Assembly (NCBI GenBank): GCA_964452935.1
Contig: CAYVNO010000003.1
Coordinates: 18,163-82,162, forward strand
Reading direction: 5' to 3'
Source of the DNA: an uncultured Methanosarcinales archaeon
GTDB lineage: Archaea; Nanobdellota; Nanobdellia; Woesearchaeales; DSVV01
Length of the DNA: 64,000 bases
Shown here: positions 4,923 to 47,812 of the stretch, in pieces
How positions within the stretch are numbered: position 1 is the stretch's first letter
How the letters are laid out: each line of letters begins with the position of its first letter
The notes under the pieces: generated by a model
Told to the model about the DNA's origin: nothing
The model's database searches: none
What the model saw: the letters and a program-made list of their open reading frames with translations, nothing else
Program-made: the position numbers and the translations under genes

Positions 4923-5782
4923 ATTACCTAGATATTGAACCAAACCCAGAACTAAGAAAATCAAAAGTAGTTATACTTCCTGTGCCATATGAAGGAACAG
5001 TTACATACGGAAAAGGAACATCAAAAGGTCCACAAGCAATTATAGATGCTTCATCACAACTAGAAACATACGACGAGGAACTAAGAGTAGAAAACTTTGA
5101 CAGAATAGGAATCCACACCACAAAACCACTAAAACTAGACAAAGATCCTAAAAAAACAGTACAAATTATCAAAGAAGCATGTAAAAAATTTATAGATGAT
5201 GAAAAATTTGTAATAATGCTTGGTGGAGAACACTCAATCTCTTTTGGTTATTACTGGGCTCTGAAAGAAAAATATCCAGATCTAGCAGTTATCCAACTAG
5301 ACGCACACGCAGATCTAAGAAATGAATACGAAGATTCAAAATTCAGCCACGCTTGTGTTATGAGGAGAATCAGAGAGACATGCAAAGACACACTACAGAT
5401 TGGAATAAGGAGTCATTCAAAAGAAGAATCAGATTTAATAAGGAAAGAAAAAATACCAATGTTCTACGCACATTATATCTACAATAAAAACACAGGATGG
5501 CTAAACGCAGCTATAAAAAACATGCCTAACAATGTATTCTTAACAATAGATGTAGATTTCTTTTCATGGGATGTAATATCAGACACAGGAACCCCAGAAC
5601 CAGGTGGAATCCACTGGTACAAAGCTTTAGAAATACTGAGAACAATCTTTGAAAACAAGAATGTAGTTGGCTTTGATATAGTTGAACTATCACAAACACA
5701 AAACTCCAACAACTCAGCATTCGCTTGCGCAAAATTAATTTATAGATTAATTAATTATAAGTTTACACCAAGGAAAAAGTGA
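4919..5782 (+). CDS. speB: Agmatinase (arginase/ureohydrolase family)
   Basis: Arginase-family metal motifs GGEHSIS, QLDAHADL and TIDVDFF. Length is 287 aa. Confidence 0.85.
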   Translation: MNYLDIEPNPELRKSKVVILPVPYEGTVTYGKGTSKGPQAIIDASSQLETYDEELRVENFDRIGIHTTKPLKLDKDPKKTVQIIKEACKKFIDDEKFVIMLGGEHSISFGYYWALKEKYPDLAVIQLDAHADLRNEYEDSKFSHACVMRRIRETCKDTLQIGIRSHSKEESDLIRKEKIPMFYAHYIYNKNTGWLNAAIKNMPNNVFLTIDVDFFSWDVISDTGTPEPGGIHWYKALEILRTIFENKNVVGFDIVELSQTQNSNNSAFACAKLIYRLINYKFTPRKK

Positions 5783-42117: not shown

Positions 42118-43257
42118 CTAACCCAACACTTCCCTCAAAGCATTAACTACTTCATCTATTTGTTCTTTTGTAATGACCAAAGGAGGCAAAAACCTTATCA
42201 CACTAACTCCTGCAATATTTGCCATCACTCCTCTTTCCATGAGTGCTTTCAAATACTTACTTGGTTTTTCTTTTAATTCAACCCCAATCATTAAACCTTC
42301 TCCCCTTACATCTCTTATTTTATCTGAATCAATCTTTCTCAACTCTTGGATAAAATATTCTCCCATCTCATTAACATGTTCAAGAATATTCTTATCTCTA
42401 ATAAAATCAATCGCTGCAGATGAAGCAGCACATGCAACTGGATTCCCACCAAAAGTTGAGCCATGTAACATTTTTGGAATCTCAACATTCATTGCAACAG
42501 CACCCATTGGAATTCCTCCAGCCATAGACTTTGCCATTGTTATCATATCAGGAACAACCACACCGTCAGAAGCAAAAAACCTTCCAGTTCTACCAAAACC
42601 TGTTTGAACCTCATCGATTATTAGCATAACTCCTTTTTCATCACATAACTCTCTAACCTGTCTGAAATACTCATGATCACCAATAATAATTCCACCTTCG
42701 CCTTGAATAATCTCAAGAATAACTGCAGCAGTATTTTCATCTACATTCTCTTTCAAATCATTTATATCATTATAATTCACAAACTTGAAACCAGGAACTA
42801 GCGGTTCAAACGGCTGTCTATACTTCAACTTATGCGTCGCACTCAACGCTCCCATTGTTCTTCCATGAAATCCTCTTTTAGCAGAAACTATCCCACTCCG
42901 ACCAGTCAAAACTCTAGCAAACTTTATTGCAGCCTCATTTGCTTCTGCGCCAGAATTACAAAGGAAAAATCTACTAAATGAACTAACTTCAGCTAACCTC
43001 TCCAATAATTCAGCCCTTGCGTCATTATAAAAAATCTCAATACAAGTTATTAACTTTCCACACTGTTCTCTAACAGCATTAACAACATACTCATTACAAT
43101 GCCCTAAATTAACACTACCAATTCCTCCAACACAATCAATATATCTTCTTCCCTCTGAATCATAAATATACACTCCTTCCCCACGAACTATAGCTACCTC
43201 TCTTTTAGGGTATACTCCTGAGGTAAATCCTCTCTCAATCTCAATCATATTTCTCAT
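42118..43257 (-). CDS. lysJ: Class III aminotransferase, LysW-gamma-L-lysine / acetylornithine aminotransferase (LysJ/ArgD)
   Basis: Has LIIDEVQTGFGRTG, and the PLP lysine region MAKSMAGG. Length is 379 aa. Operon context supports the call. Confidence 0.9.
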   Translation of the reverse strand: MRNMIEIERGFTSGVYPKREVAIVRGEGVYIYDSEGRRYIDCVGGIGSVNLGHCNEYVVNAVREQCGKLITCIEIFYNDARAELLERLAEVSSFSRFFLCNSGAEANEAAIKFARVLTGRSGIVSAKRGFHGRTMGALSATHKLKYRQPFEPLVPGFKFVNYNDINDLKENVDENTAAVILEIIQGEGGIIIGDHEYFRQVRELCDEKGVMLIIDEVQTGFGRTGRFFASDGVVVPDMITMAKSMAGGIPMGAVAMNVEIPKMLHGSTFGGNPVACAASSAAIDFIRDKNILEHVNEMGEYFIQELRKIDSDKIRDVRGEGLMIGVELKEKPSKYLKALMERGVMANIAGVSVIRFLPPLVITKEQIDEVVNALREVLG

Positions 43258-44045
43258 TCTATTATTGTCCTCTCACCATTCAAAGCATTTGTAACAGGAT
43301 TCTCGACATTAGCTGAAGCAAAAATAACTCTACTAACACCATTTTGCAAAGCTTCTTGAGCAGCCATTATCTTTTTCTTCATCGTACCTTTTGCATACTG
43401 CACATACTCACCTAAGTCAGCCTTACCAATCTCACGAATCAAACTAGTCTCATCATTCACATCTCTCAACAACCCAGGAACATTTGAAAATAATATCAAC
43501 GTATCGCCATCAATAGACGAAGCAATCAGCGCTGCCATTCGATCTCCATCAATATTTATCGGTTCATTATTATAACTAATTCCAGGAGGAGTAATCACAG
43601 GTACTAAACCATTATCTAACAAACTTCTAATCAAATCAACATTAACTTTTTCAGGCTTTCCAGTATATTGGTCTCTTAATAATTTCTTTTTACCATTCTC
43701 AACTATCCTCAACACATCTTTCCTTCTCCCTTCAACCAACCTTCCATCCATTCCAGATAACCCAATAGCATTAACACCTAAATTCTGCATTTTCTCAACA
43801 ATCATCTTATTCATTCTTCCACAATAAGTCATCTGAAATAAATCCATAGTCTCTCTATCAGTATACCTGCTAGTATGTCCACTAACAGATGTAACCCATC
43901 TAACCTCTCTATTCATCTCTTCGCAAATCCTCTTTAACTCATCCTTTCCACCATGCACTAAAATAAAATTCTCCTGTCTAACTAAATCTTGTAAAAGATT
44001 ATCATAATCAATTCCTGCTGCTCCACCAACTTTAACAACTAACAT
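43254..44045 (-). CDS. lysZ: Amino-acid kinase, LysW-aminoadipate/glutamate kinase (LysZ/ArgB)
   Basis: Has the AAK-family start MLVVKVGGA and LVHGG. Length is 263 aa. Confidence 0.85.
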   Translation of the reverse strand: MLVVKVGGAAGIDYDNLLQDLVRQENFILVHGGKDELKRICEEMNREVRWVTSVSGHTSRYTDRETMDLFQMTYCGRMNKMIVEKMQNLGVNAIGLSGMDGRLVEGRRKDVLRIVENGKKKLLRDQYTGKPEKVNVDLIRSLLDNGLVPVITPPGISYNNEPINIDGDRMAALIASSIDGDTLILFSNVPGLLRDVNDETSLIREIGKADLGEYVQYAKGTMKKKIMAAQEALQNGVSRVIFASANVENPVTNALNGERTIIE

Positions 44046-44656
44046 TCTATCAACTCTCCATTATTCATAATCTCCGGAGTCAAATCCAAAAACGGCTCTG
44101 AACAAACTACTTCACCATACCTAATCTGGAAAAAATCCTCTTCCTCTGAATACCTACAATAAACATAAGTTTTCTCTTTATTTGATATCATTAAATTAAA
44201 TGCTCTGATGTACCTAACATTATCTTGAACATAATCAATAGCTTCTCTAACCCCTTCATCAAAACCCAATCTATCAATATGGTCCAAAAACACATTAAAC
44301 AACTTATGTGCTCCTGTTTCTCCCTCAGCACTAATCCTAACTCCTTTCAACCTTCCGTTAAAGGCAAAAGCATACTCCTCCCTAACAAAAGGCATATTAT
44401 TCTCAGCATTAATAGTATGCAACCTAAGTGCATCTCTAACATGTGCAATAATCACTCTCGAACTAACCTCAGGTATCTCATCTTCCCACATTGGTTTAAC
44501 ACTTCTATGAAGTTTCCATGTATCACCATCCAAATAACAAAAACCCCACCCATCTCTCTGATTGTGTCTTGCATTCTTTGCTATTCTTGAAAATTCCTCT
44601 AAATAACTCACAACATTAAACTCTTCCTTCTTCCTAACAAACAACATTCTGCACAT
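44039..44656 (-). CDS. Class II (Ntn) glutamine amidotransferase-like protein, YafJ/EgtC-type
   Basis: With the start at ATG 44656 the protein begins MC (N-terminal nucleophile Cys). It has DGWGF, AHVRDA...NNMPF and FAFNG motifs. It is translationally coupled on both sides inside the lysW operon. Confidence 0.7.
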   Translation of the reverse strand: MCRMLFVRKKEEFNVVSYLEEFSRIAKNARHNQRDGWGFCYLDGDTWKLHRSVKPMWEDEIPEVSSRVIIAHVRDALRLHTINAENNMPFVREEYAFAFNGRLKGVRISAEGETGAHKLFNVFLDHIDRLGFDEGVREAIDYVQDNVRYIRAFNLMISNKEKTYVYCRYSEEEDFFQIRYGEVVCSEPFLDLTPEIMNNGELIEC

Positions 44657-44658
44657 TT

Positions 44659-45687
44659 TCACACCGGATGTAAACCACTAAATTCTAACCCTCCTTTCTC
44701 ATCAAAACCACACATTAGATTCATACATTGAACAGCACTTCCTGCTGCGCCTTTCATAAGGTTGTCAATTGCACAAATAACAACTAACCTATTACTATTC
44801 TCATCTCTTTCAAACCCAATATCGCAGTAATTCGAACCAGCTAATATTTTTGGTTCAGGATATCGATAAACACCTGAAACATCTTTTACTATTCTAATAA
44901 ACGGTTCACTACCATACGCTTCCCTGTAAATCTTTCTTATCTCAAGTTCACTCAAATCCCGATTCAAAAAAACATGTGATGTAGATAAGATTCCTCTAAC
45001 CATTTCAATAGATGTTGCTGAAAAATGAATTCTATCTCTATCAACACCTAACTCTTGCACCATTTCTGCAACATGCCTATGAAATGTTGGAGCAAAAGAT
45101 CTTACAGCTCTGCTTCTTTCAGGATGATGACTTCCCAAATTTGCTTTATTACCAGCTTCTGATGATCCAACTTTTACTTCTACAACAACCTTATCAACAA
45201 CACCAGCTTTAAACAACGGATACAAAGGTAGATTAACAGATGTTGCATTACAACCAACTCCTGAAATATAATTTGCATTCCTAATATCTTCTCTATGCAA
45301 TTCTGGAAGACCATAAACAAATTCACTCAACATCTCAGCACATCCATGCTCTTCTCCATACCACTCCTTATACAAACTAGAATCATTCAACCTAAAGTCT
45401 GCACTCAAATCAATAATTTTTGGAGCAATCTCTCTAAATCTGGAAATATTTTCCTGAGCTTTTCCATGAGGCATTGCTAAAAACAACAAATCACATGGCT
45501 CTAAGTCATTTACACTACAAAACTTCAACATAGTTTGTCCTCTTAAATTAGGATGAATCCTAAAAACAAACTTTCCAGTATTACTTTCTGAAGTAACTTG
45601 TGCAACCTCTATTTGATTATGTCCTAACAATATCCTCAACAACTCTCCTCCGCCATATCCTGACGCTCCAACAATACTAACTTTCAT
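44659..45687 (-). CDS. lysY: LysW-aminoadipyl/glutamyl-phosphate reductase (LysY/ArgC)
   Basis: Has N-terminal [16 protein letters not shown] and the active-site region GVGCNATS. Length is 342 aa. Confidence 0.9.
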
Positions 45688-46525
45688 TTTCAGCCACCTT
45701 TAAAACATAATCAACAATCTTTGCAGGGATATTAACTCCTGTTGTTTCTATGCTGTTCCTAAACTCCATTGTGTAATTAACCTCATTAACTAAATATCCT
45801 CCATCAACTTCAAACAGATCAATCGCAACAACTCCTCCACCTACAGCCTTAGCCGCATTTACAGATATTTCTGCAATTTCCGGAGTTACAACACAATTCT
45901 CTGCCTTTCCTCCTCTCGAAGTATTTGTAATCCAATGTTCTGACGATCTATAAATCGCAGCAACACATTCACCACCAATAACAAAACTTCTTATATCTCT
46001 TTTTTGAGGTTTATCAACATACTCTTGAATATAAAATATTGAATGATGATAACTTCCTAAGATCTGCTTATGTTCTAAAATACTTTCAGCAGTCTCTCTA
46101 TCATTAACTTTTGAAATCAATCTCCCCCAAGAACCAACTGCAGGCTTTAAAACACAAGGATAACCTAACTTTTCCATCGCCTCTAAAGCTGACTCTGGTG
46201 TAAAAGCTATAAAACATCTTGGTGTCGGAATATTATTTCTAATCAAAGCTTGCGTTGTTAGGAATTTACTCCCACATGTCTCTGCAACATTATAATTATT
46301 CACAGTTTTTATCCCTTTGTCATTAAAGATTTTCAACGCATGCAAAGCTCTTGCATGATTAACACATCTTTCTAACACAACATCTACACCATTCTCTAGT
46401 TCATGCAAATCAAATGATAGTTTTCTATCATCTAAGTCCACAATCTCAACATCTCTTCTCCTTAACTCTTCTAACAAAAGTTTTTCTTCTTTCCTAACAA
46501 TCGATCTCAAAAATCCAACTCTCAT
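45677..46525 (-). CDS. lysX: ATP-grasp ligase LysX/ArgX (RimK family)
   Basis: Has the ATP-grasp fold ([20 protein letters not shown]). ATG 46525 forms an ATGA overlap with the lysW stop; the ORF track uses a TTG at 46534. Confidence 0.85.
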
Positions 46526-46686
46526 TCTCCCCAATCCTCTTCCTCTTGCGGAGCTAACTGAAACGCAATAGGATCAACATTAGTAATCTCTAACTCAACC
46601 CCGCACTCAGGACACTCAATTAACTCTCCATTTTCTACACTCTCTCCTAGCGGAACATCTGCCCCACATTCTGTACATTCTGCCAT
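46522..46686 (-). CDS. lysW: Amino-group carrier protein LysW
   Basis: My own translation gives [54 protein letters not shown], 54 aa. It has a CxxC...CxxC zinc ribbon and the diagnostic acidic C-terminal EDWGE. It is below the ORF-track cutoff. Confidence 0.85.
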
Positions 46687-46708: not shown

Positions 46709-46811
46709 AGCACTACTGCCAAGACCGGCCTTGAAATCAATGCGAACAACGACGGTTCAACTCGGTTTCGGCTTCGAAACACCGAATCGAGCAATCGGTC
46801 GCAGTAGTGCT
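46709..46811. other. Long-helix-closed intergenic element E4 immediately upstream of lysW
   Basis: AGCACTACTGC (46709-46719) pairs with GCAGTAGTGCT (46801-46811). Inner stems are GACCG/CGGTC, a CTCG..TTCGG/CCGAA..CGAG hairpin and a TTGAA/TTCAA hairpin. Confidence 0.35.
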
Positions 46812-46873
46812 AATTATATATAGAAGTAGTAACAATTCATCAGATATAAACATTATGTTATTATAATAACAAA

Positions 46874-47812
46874 TTACTCTAAGATCTCAACAGAATCAAT
46901 ATGTCCATCTCCATCTAAATCAAAGCCTTGCACAACAGAAACAAAACTCTTCTGTCCTGAATATCTAACTAATATTTCTTTATAATGTCTAGTCAACCCA
47001 ATCACTGCAGCCTTTGTACCAAGAGAACTAATTCCAGCTAAAAATAAAACACTCTTTGATTTATCTAACGGATTAGGAATCTTTGCAATCATTCCAACAC
47101 TTTCATCATTATACCGGCCTTTTTTAGAAACCAACTCCCAAGGTTGAGTATCACTGAACTTAACAGGTAAATGTTCATTCAAAGAATCAGAAATTAAATT
47201 AGTAACAGGCCCACCAACAACAACTAAATTTTCTTTCTCAATACCTCTTGATTTCAAGTCAACATCCAATGAAACAGAAAAGTTCTCAGGCACAGCACAG
47301 ATCTTTCCAAAAAACAACGCCAAATCAATAGTATAATGTCCATCTCTAGCTCTTGCTTTCTGTGGTCCATGAGGATCAGGACTTCCGACGACAAAATAAC
47401 CACTAAATCTTCCATCAGAAACAAAATCAGATAAAAAATCCCTCAACTCTGAATCAATTTTCTTGCCAAACAGTTCTCCAGCATTTTTCCAGTTTTTTTC
47501 CAACGCAACAACGAAATTAAGATTTTTAGGCCTAAACTTCTTCGCTACTGTTCCTCTTATTTCTTTCTTCTCAACTATATCTAAAATTCCTGCATTATTC
47601 AACTGTTTGATGTGATAATATACTTTTTGTTCATGCATCTTTAATTTCTTAGCAATCTCAGCAGGATACAACGGTTCTTTAGACAAAAGTTTCAATATCT
47701 TAACTCTAATCTCATTATTAACTAACTCAATACTCCCAGGATTATCTAGCATAGTTGCATCATTATACACTAACCCTTTCTCACTCTCCTTCAAAATATA
47801 CACTTTTGCCAT
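46874..47812 (-). CDS. ArsR-type winged-helix protein with uncharacterised C-terminal domain
   Basis: Has VKILKLLSKEPLYPAEIAKKLKMHEQKVYYHIKQLNNAGIL, followed by a C-terminal domain of about 200 aa. Confidence 0.6.
   Translation of the reverse strand: MAKVYILKESEKGLVYNDATMLDNPGSIELVNNEIRVKILKLLSKEPLYPAEIAKKLKMHEQKVYYHIKQLNNAGILDIVEKKEIRGTVAKKFRPKNLNFVVALEKNWKNAGELFGKKIDSELRDFLSDFVSDGRFSGYFVVGSPDPHGPQKARARDGHYTIDLALFFGKICAVPENFSVSLDVDLKSRGIEKENLVVVGGPVTNLISDSLNEHLPVKFSDTQPWELVSKKGRYNDESVGMIAKIPNPLDKSKSVLFLAGISSLGTKAAVIGLTRHYKEILVRYSGQKSFVSVVQGFDLDGDGHIDSVEILE

Follow-up and report, generated by a model that had tools for sequence, protein, structure and literature searches.

An N-terminal nucleophile hydrolase gene as a probable stand-in for LysK in LysW operons of an uncultured archaeon and of several bacterial phyla

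The stretch of DNA considered here (the window: 64,000 nt of contig CAYVNO010000003.1 in assembly GCA_964452935.1, C3:18163-82162) comes from an uncultured archaeon placed in the Woesearchaeales, and contains a six-gene operon for amino acid synthesis on the small carrier protein LysW. The textbook example of amino acid biosynthesis on a carrier protein is the LysW pathway, and to our knowledge LysK is the only release enzyme known so far for LysW. No lysK is found in this cluster. Embedded between its lysY and lysZ genes is one for a 205-residue protein of the N-terminal nucleophile (Ntn) type, which probably acts in place of LysK, releasing the completed amino acid, in this case probably ornithine, from the carrier. 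Replacement of LysK by an Ntn hydrolase has most likely recurred in many bacterial and archaeal lineages. The release step is suggested by gene order, by a phyletic distribution complementary to that of LysK, by the fold and by the logic of the active site. A preliminary description of the window, which had correctly reported the missing lysK, proposed the Ntn gene as its non-orthologous replacement, and this proposal is now strongly supported on comparative grounds, by the conserved position of the gene, by the absence of LysK from genomes that carry it, by an either/or distribution of the two in the Gemmatimonadota, by a second gene order in which the Ntn gene takes the lysK slot, and by an EgtC-like fold.

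The operon runs from 46686 to 42118 on the minus strand, with tight packing. Its genes were identified by scanning the window proteins with Pfam and TIGR/NCBIfam profiles at curated cut-offs. The first, lysW/argW (46522..46686), encodes a 54-residue zinc-ribbon amino-group carrier protein (TIGR01206, 61.6 bits against a cut-off of 53.2; PF21344, 59.5 bits) with an acidic tail, EEEDWGE; the attachment site is the gamma-carboxyl of the C-terminal Glu. It is followed by lysX/argX (45677..46525), for the ATP-grasp ligase that charges LysW with glutamate or aminoadipate (TIGR02144, 347.6 bits, cut-off 275.6; also PF22626 and PF08443), and by a lysY/argC-type gene (44659..45687) for the reductase of the LysW-bound acyl phosphate (TIGR01850, 386.9 bits, above the cut-off). 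Next is the Ntn gene (44039..44656), whose product is class II glutamine amidotransferase-like with Cys1 as nucleophile and an EgtC-like fold, matches PF13230 (GATase_4) at 40.2 bits (cut-off 23), begins with MC, and contains the motifs RDGWGF, HVR..NNMPF and FAFNG. The last two are a lysZ/argB-type gene (43254..44045) for the kinase of the LysW-bound substrate (NF010659, 368.7 bits, cut-off 223) and a lysJ/argD-type gene (42118..43257) for an aminotransferase dependent on pyridoxal 5'-phosphate (PLP; TIGR00707, 469.7 bits, cut-off 410; PF00202, 399 bits). The gene order lysW-X-Y-Ntn-Z-J given in the preliminary description thus agrees with the profile matches, as do the length and EDWGE ending of LysW and the length, MC start and motifs of the Ntn protein with the sequence. 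Its statement that all junctions are coupled through ATGA or GTGA overlaps is right for two of them, lysW/lysX and lysZ/lysJ, both ATGA; lysX and lysY overlap by 11 nt, the Ntn gene and lysZ by 8 nt, and the Ntn gene begins, with ATG-TGC, 2 nt past the stop of lysY. Only an upstream GTG start would let lysY and the Ntn gene overlap as GTGA, and the nucleophile Cys would then be buried.

Relatives of the Ntn protein were sought by a word-based search, which found eight, and by an exhaustive HMMER search, whose hits came to 361 clusters at E <= 1e-3 and 145 at E <= 1e-10, almost all of them of 205–230 residues. A species-level scan, with one genome per species, gave 63 Ntn loci in at least eight phyla: Ignavibacteriota, Gemmatimonadota (Longimicrobiales), Calditrichota, KSB1, Acidobacteriota (Aminicenantia), Gammaproteobacteria, Planctomycetota and Woesearchaeota. 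Co-occurrence with lysW clusters, which the preliminary description had singled out as worth checking, is extensive, with the Ntn gene located between lysY and lysZ/lysJ of such a cluster in 62 of the 63 species genomes, down to about 31% identity; L063 is a true exception, without such linkage. Divergent members (25–26% identity) have a second order, ...lysZ-lysJ-Ntn, which puts the Ntn gene in the slot of lysK in canonical clusters. The only other recurrent cluster gene is homocitrate-synthase-like, between lysW and lysX at 16 loci; no M20 peptidase gene recurs in Ntn clusters, and lysX is kept in every cluster examined. Three clusters with neither LysK nor Ntn (L117, L122 and L182) are split clusters and not a third type.

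The closest relatives of the window Ntn protein are from L010, with 69% identity and the same synteny, and L011, with 49%; both are next to it in the tree. Cluster architecture varies in two further respects. At seven Gemmatimonadota loci (L041, L047, L050, L055, L059, L066 and L069) lysZ and lysJ are fused into one open reading frame (ORF) that immediately follows the Ntn gene and encodes about 680–740 residues, the amino-acid kinase domain preceding the class III aminotransferase; the fusion joins non-consecutive steps of the pathway. Two Ntn-type clusters have two LysX paralogues each, in tandem in L029 (2886-4561; Woesearchaeota) and, in L017 (5216-8022; KSB1), with the second copy between lysY and the Ntn gene. 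Such pairs may be the LysX/ArgX set of a bifunctional lysine/arginine pathway.

The distributions of the Ntn protein and LysK are complementary. Among 50 Ntn-bearing genomes none has a LysK over the TIGR01902 cut-off (best score 109 bits, against 163), meaning for the bacterial ones none over this curated cut-off and not a complete lack of M20 proteins; the same search passed 4 of 14 control genomes. LysW itself is rare in the phylum of the window, with 8 of 201 genomes over the cut-off. All eight of these archaeal relatives have the Ntn gene, scoring 234–267 bits against the family profile, and all eight lack LysK, bringing its absence by the curated cut-off to 58 of 58 Ntn-bearing genomes (50 plus 8). 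Three of the archaeal LysW-positive, Ntn-positive genomes lack any match to PF01546 (M20): G101, G143 and G244, the last of which is a single contig. The cluster in G244 reads lysW-hcs-hacA-hacB-hicdh-lysX-lysY-Ntn-lysZ-lysJ, with a near-complete aminoadipate set for lysine, and the Ntn gene is the only candidate in it for the last step.

The Gemmatimonadota offer a comparison within one phylum, using a sample picked on LysW only (11 true positives among 151 genomes). Nine of the 11 have the Ntn gene and no LysK, two have LysK and no Ntn gene, and none has both or neither (Fisher p = 0.018; this value and the second one below come from small counts and are not corrected for phylogeny). The two genomes lacking the Ntn gene, G289 and G343, have LysK at 330 and 281 bits. 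In G289 the cluster is lysW-lysX-lysY-lysZ-lysJ-lysK, where the last gene matches NF003367, "[LysW]-lysine hydrolase", at 409.5 bits.

The genome assembly to which the window belongs (1.66 Mb in 49 contigs, about 90% complete) was searched throughout with Peptidase_M20 and TIGR01902 for the LysK/ArgE (M20) homologues that the preliminary description had suggested looking for. It is a small archaeal genome, and an archaeal signal recognition particle RNA is found at 2471-2740 of the window. No protein in it exceeds the LysK cut-offs of TIGR01902 or NF003367, and just two were recovered, both far below them. One is an M42 aminopeptidase of 340 residues on contig C23 (PF05343, 301.6 bits). The other, of 414 residues on contig C26, is an M20D amidohydrolase (CpsA-like); as some relatives have no M20 protein at all, it is not a general solution to the missing release step.

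An AlphaFold2 model of the Ntn protein, built from an 84-sequence alignment, has a pLDDT (predicted local distance difference test) of 97.6 and a pTM (predicted template modelling score) of 0.92. The top matches in the PDB by Foldseek are EgtC structures (4ZFL, 4ZFJ and 4ZFK; template modelling scores of 0.76–0.79 at 18–19% identity), followed by the YafJ-type proteins 1TE5 and 3MDN and then by the glutaminase domains of GlmS and PurF, all with probability 1.00. The protein thus has the alpha-beta-beta-alpha fold of Ntn hydrolases, as far as the model and the Foldseek matches indicate. Across the family Cys2, His72-x-Arg74, an NNMPF/NQPF motif and Asn100-Gly101 are kept. Cys2 is present in 127 of 128 aligned N-termini and the following Arg3 in all 128; among 157 aligned sequences Asn100 is found in 150, Gly101 in 149, and His72 and Arg74 in 146 each. 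We take Cys2, Arg74 and Asn100-Gly101 to be homologous, respectively, to the nucleophile, the alpha-carboxylate-binding Arg and the oxyanion hole of GlmS and PurF.

One conserved element of these enzymes is altered. In GlmS/PurF-type enzymes the Asp of the T-D-S/T-E motif binds glutamine by its free alpha-amino group. In the Ntn protein the motif is replaced by T-G-A-H, with G-E-T-G-A-H aligning to G-E-T-D-S-E of 1TE5 and G-S-T-D-S-E of 3MDN, and the position of the canonical Asp (Gly115) is Gly in 141 of 151 aligned members. The combination of a kept Arg and a lost Asp would be explained by the LysW conjugate, which offers a free alpha-carboxylate, at the C-terminus of the protein, and has its alpha-amino group in a peptide bond; the Asp-to-Gly change is as expected for a substrate with a peptide-bound C-terminal Glu, judging from the alignments. 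Six Asp-type proteins among the HMMER hits form a separate clade (support 100/96), and none of the three with readable context is lys-linked. The converse, that Gly-type members are lys-linked, held for three of four distant members.

From family membership, LysX would ligate glutamate to the gamma-carboxyl of the LysW C-terminal Glu, after which LysZ would phosphorylate, LysY reduce and LysJ transaminate the bound substrate to give LysW-gamma-ornithine, or LysW-gamma-lysine in relatives with aminoadipate genes. The proposed release would begin with attack on the gamma-glutamyl amide carbonyl by Cys1, exposed by removal of the initiator Met, with Asn100-Gly101 as the oxyanion hole and Arg74 holding the free alpha-carboxylate of the LysW C-terminus. 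Ornithine or lysine would depart, and water would hydrolyse the LysW thioester to regenerate free LysW. In the genome of the window the released ornithine would go on to arginine by way of ornithine transcarbamylase (OTC), ArgG and ArgH.

The thioester intermediate leaves room for another outcome, in which the enzyme is mainly a transferase: the alpha-amino group of fresh glutamate or aminoadipate would resolve the LysW thioester, recharging the carrier without ATP, and LysX would be needed for priming only. The covalent acyl-enzyme chemistry of Cys-Ntn enzymes permits such a transfer in principle, fold and catalytic residues are consistent with it, and ArgJ in the cyclic acetyl pathway is an established precedent; gamma-glutamyl transpeptidase would be a further parallel. 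The sequence data look alike for transfer and for hydrolysis. With lysX retained in all clusters examined, however, and with the closest structure, EgtC, being that of a hydrolase (PMC9103826), a mainly transferring enzyme is unlikely.

The carrier itself provides an independent view of what the enzyme might do. LysW ends in ...EDWGQ rather than Glu at 11 of 51 Ntn-type loci of the species scan, in several phyla, and close relatives differ in this residue (Q in L062 and E in L064; Q in L023 and E in L016). A scan of metagenome contigs with a LysW pattern stopping before the last residue found Glu at all 27 loci with an in-cluster LysK and at both Ntn-type loci. Pooled, 11 of 53 Ntn-type and 0 of 29 LysK-type clusters have a Gln-ended LysW (p = 0.0065). 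One further metagenome contig, L116, encodes a Gln-ended LysW (EEEEDWGQ; 1655-1816) followed by a homocitrate synthase gene, and is too short to type. A gamma-carboxamide cannot be activated by an ATP-grasp ligase, and a Gln-ended LysW therefore needs deamidation, which is the reaction of a class II "glutaminase" site. Independently of the other evidence, this points to the gamma-position of the last LysW residue as the place where the Ntn enzyme acts. In lineages with Gln-ended carriers the same chemistry as proposed for release would first deamidate Gln to Glu; because the window LysW ends in Glu, only the release reaction applies there.

These carriers also raise the question of whether the Ntn protein could be an accessory only, deamidating Gln-ended LysW or proofreading mis-loaded LysW, while another hydrolase, for example of the M20D or M42 type, releases the product. 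Gln-ended LysW was found only with the Ntn gene among typed clusters, and the genome of the window does have one M20D and one M42 peptidase. However, the remaining 40 of the 51 Ntn-type loci, and the window, keep the Ntn gene although their LysW is Glu-ended; the three genomes mentioned above have LysW and Ntn without any M20 peptidase; the homocitrate-synthase-like gene apart, no other gene recurs in the clusters; and the strict either/or relation with LysK is what replacement predicts. A purely accessory role is on this evidence quite improbable.

It is conceivable, if rather unlikely, that a LysW thioester on Cys1 gives the releasing enzyme two further abilities at once: (a) to activate an inert Gln-ended pro-carrier, in the manner of Dop and Pup, and (b) to pass the thioester to fresh glutamate or aminoadipate, in the manner of ArgJ. 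The first would concern the Gln-ended pro-carrier seen in about one fifth of Ntn-type clusters and not in the window; with the second, the LysW pathway would become a cycle that saves ATP.

The preliminary description had considered, as an alternative to release, that the Ntn protein is an amide-nitrogen donor, that is, a true glutamine amidotransferase subunit feeding ammonia to a step of the pathway. The GATase_4 match, the class II amidotransferase fold and Cys1 would all fit, but the idea is very unlikely. The protein is a stand-alone domain of 205 residues with no fused or recurrent partner synthase domain, its recurrent neighbours being lys genes and the homocitrate synthase gene; the Asp that would bind the free alpha-amino group of glutamine is Gly; and the structure resembles that of the hydrolase EgtC more than those of GlmS and PurF. 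LysJ takes its amino group from an amino acid donor via PLP, so the pathway has no ammonia-requiring step (established knowledge; PMC12998189). That the Ntn gene is an unrelated passenger in the operon is barely conceivable, since against two members that do not adjoin lys genes stand a position kept in 62 of 63 genomes and at least eight phyla at identities as low as about 31%, another arrangement that is likewise conserved, and translational coupling.

Several points do weigh against the Ntn protein as the replacement for LysK. Its support comes entirely from gene context, phyletic pattern and predicted structure, and the role given to the Asp-to-Gly change from alignment to two structures together with textbook knowledge of GlmS and PurF. 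Linkage is incomplete, as L063 and the distant Gly-type member P0138 do not adjoin lys genes. Most bacterial Ntn genomes keep ArgE/DapE-like M20 paralogues, the best of them being the 109-bit match noted above, and the M20D protein on C26, in an assembly that is about 90% complete, could in principle deacylate an N-alpha-acyl amino acid. The counts, finally, are small, and their statistics take no account of phylogeny.

As to the product, the genome of the window encodes OTC (TIGR00658, 284.4 bits, cut-off 280.85), ArgG (556 bits), ArgH (323 bits), CarA with an adjoining CarB-sized ORF of 1061 residues, and PyrB; the arginine-pathway loci (OTC, ArgG, ArgH, and CarA with the CarB-sized ORF) are at C29:7235-8182, C1:65252-67641 and C21:8399-15373 of this genome (G000). 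No homologues of the G244 homocitrate synthase, homoaconitase subunits or homoisocitrate dehydrogenase, and no ArgB or ArgC homologue besides LysZ and LysY, were found in the approximately 90%-complete assembly, within which the operon is the only ornithine route. Because OTC, ArgG, ArgH and CarA with its CarB-sized neighbour are present and the aminoadipate genes were not found, ornithine and arginine are the likely products, and the operon most likely serves arginine biosynthesis via ornithine in this organism. Arginine prototrophy would be unusual in a small genome of the DPANN type. Among relatives the product shifts: the G244 cluster is clearly for lysine, and the same enzyme set is used for lysine there and in the Ignavibacteriota clusters. 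In the preliminary description the choice between lysine, ornithine/arginine or both was regarded as undecidable from the sequence; the whole genome now favours ornithine/arginine for this organism.

LysK, known from Thermus, Sulfolobus and Thermococcus and belonging to the ArgE/DapE family of M20 peptidases (TIGR01902, NF003367), is proposed to share its reaction with the Ntn protein, namely cleavage of the gamma-glutamyl amide through which the LysW Glu is joined to lysine or ornithine at the alpha-amino group. The two genes have the same operon context, in some clusters the same slot after lysJ, and are mutually exclusive in the sampled genomes. They are not homologous: LysK is a two-metal M20 peptidase of about 350 residues, whereas the Ntn protein is a metal-independent Cys1 hydrolase for which a covalent thioester is expected, and Gln-ended LysW accompanies the Ntn version and no LysK-type cluster here.

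EgtC (4ZFJ/4ZFK/4ZFL; TIGR03442), the best structural match, is likewise a stand-alone Ntn amidohydrolase of the GATase_4 family with an MCR start. It is the gamma-glutamyl-hercynylcysteine sulfoxide hydrolase of ergothioneine biosynthesis. Its function there is to strip an intermediate of its gamma-glutamyl group (PMC9103826). It thus takes a gamma-glutamyl group off a biosynthetic intermediate and donates no ammonia, the same role as is proposed for the Ntn protein. The two differ in length (about 230 against 205 residues), in the canonical Asp, which is Gly in the Ntn protein, and in the glutamyl group, which in EgtC is a free amino acid residue and here would be a protein C-terminus. The Ntn protein is not itself EgtC: it scores 36 bits against TIGR03442 (cut-off 218.65), and there is no egt context (egtABDE), its neighbours being lysW/X/Y/Z/J at 62 of 63 loci. 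YafJ-type proteins (1TE5, 3MDN; COG0121) share its Pfam family and fold and are the nearest relatives outside the lys-linked group, but they keep T-D-S-E, are longer (about 250–270 residues) and are not lys-linked. By analogy only, Dop/PafD of the Pup system is also a single enzyme that deamidates the C-terminal Gln of a small tag and later cleaves a gamma-glutamyl isopeptide, which suggests that Gln-ended LysW variants may follow a Dop/Pup-like logic. Dop is unrelated in fold and chemistry, being an ATP-binding, glutamine-synthetase-like protein, and the Glu-ended window LysW has no need of the deamidase half. The isoelectric point was also considered as a proxy for binding of the acidic LysW, and was uninformative (5.35 for the window Ntn protein; family median 8.2).

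No published description of an Ntn/LysW pairing was found in a search that covered literature outside subscription journals. Nothing in it joined LysW with a glutamine amidotransferase, and LysW with Ntn or amidohydrolase gave unrelated co-mentions only. A 2026 GapMind preprint does not treat the release step, a paper on LysW enzymes in FEBS J (2025) names LysK only, and the Ntn family is not modelled in NCBIfam release 20. If the proposal is right, a non-homologous, metal-independent release enzyme would close an apparent gap in LysW pathways of the Gemmatimonadota, Ignavibacteriota, Acidobacteriota, Calditrichota, some Gammaproteobacteria, the Planctomycetota and the few arginine- or lysine-making DPANN archaea, and automated predictions of auxotrophy in these groups would be corrected. 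It would also, for the first time, assign a function to one clade among the YafJ/GATase_4 proteins, which are poorly understood, add a further Ntn "glutaminase" that acts on a protein C-terminus, and explain the Gln ending of some LysW proteins.

Upstream of lysW, on the same strand, is a GC-rich multi-stem leader of about 103 nt (46709..46811, minus strand), preceded by a TATA-like box and followed by the start of lysW. It is closed by a helix of 10–11 bp (GCACTACTGC...GCAGTAGTGC), and its predicted fold of -56.9 kcal/mol has a z-score of -3.7, with none of 200 shuffles equally stable. There is no Rfam match, either at the gathering threshold or at E <= 1, no second copy was found in the same genome, and the regions upstream of lysW in relatives have no sequence match. 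The leader may be a cis-regulatory element, with an uncertain place in the LysW system. In the 69%-identical relative (L004/L010) the leader is also structured and repeat-containing, with a different sequence. The TATA-like motif (aatgtttatatct; about 46841-46853, minus strand) is, unlike the leader, matched there almost letter for letter (L004, about 5660-5680). Just beyond it, at 46874-47812 on the minus strand, is a gene for a 312-residue protein with an N-terminal ArsR-type helix-turn-helix domain (PF01022) and a C-terminal S-layer-like domain (PF05124). This protein is a possible regulator, and L004 also has a 312-residue protein with PF01022 and PF05124 domains near its cluster.

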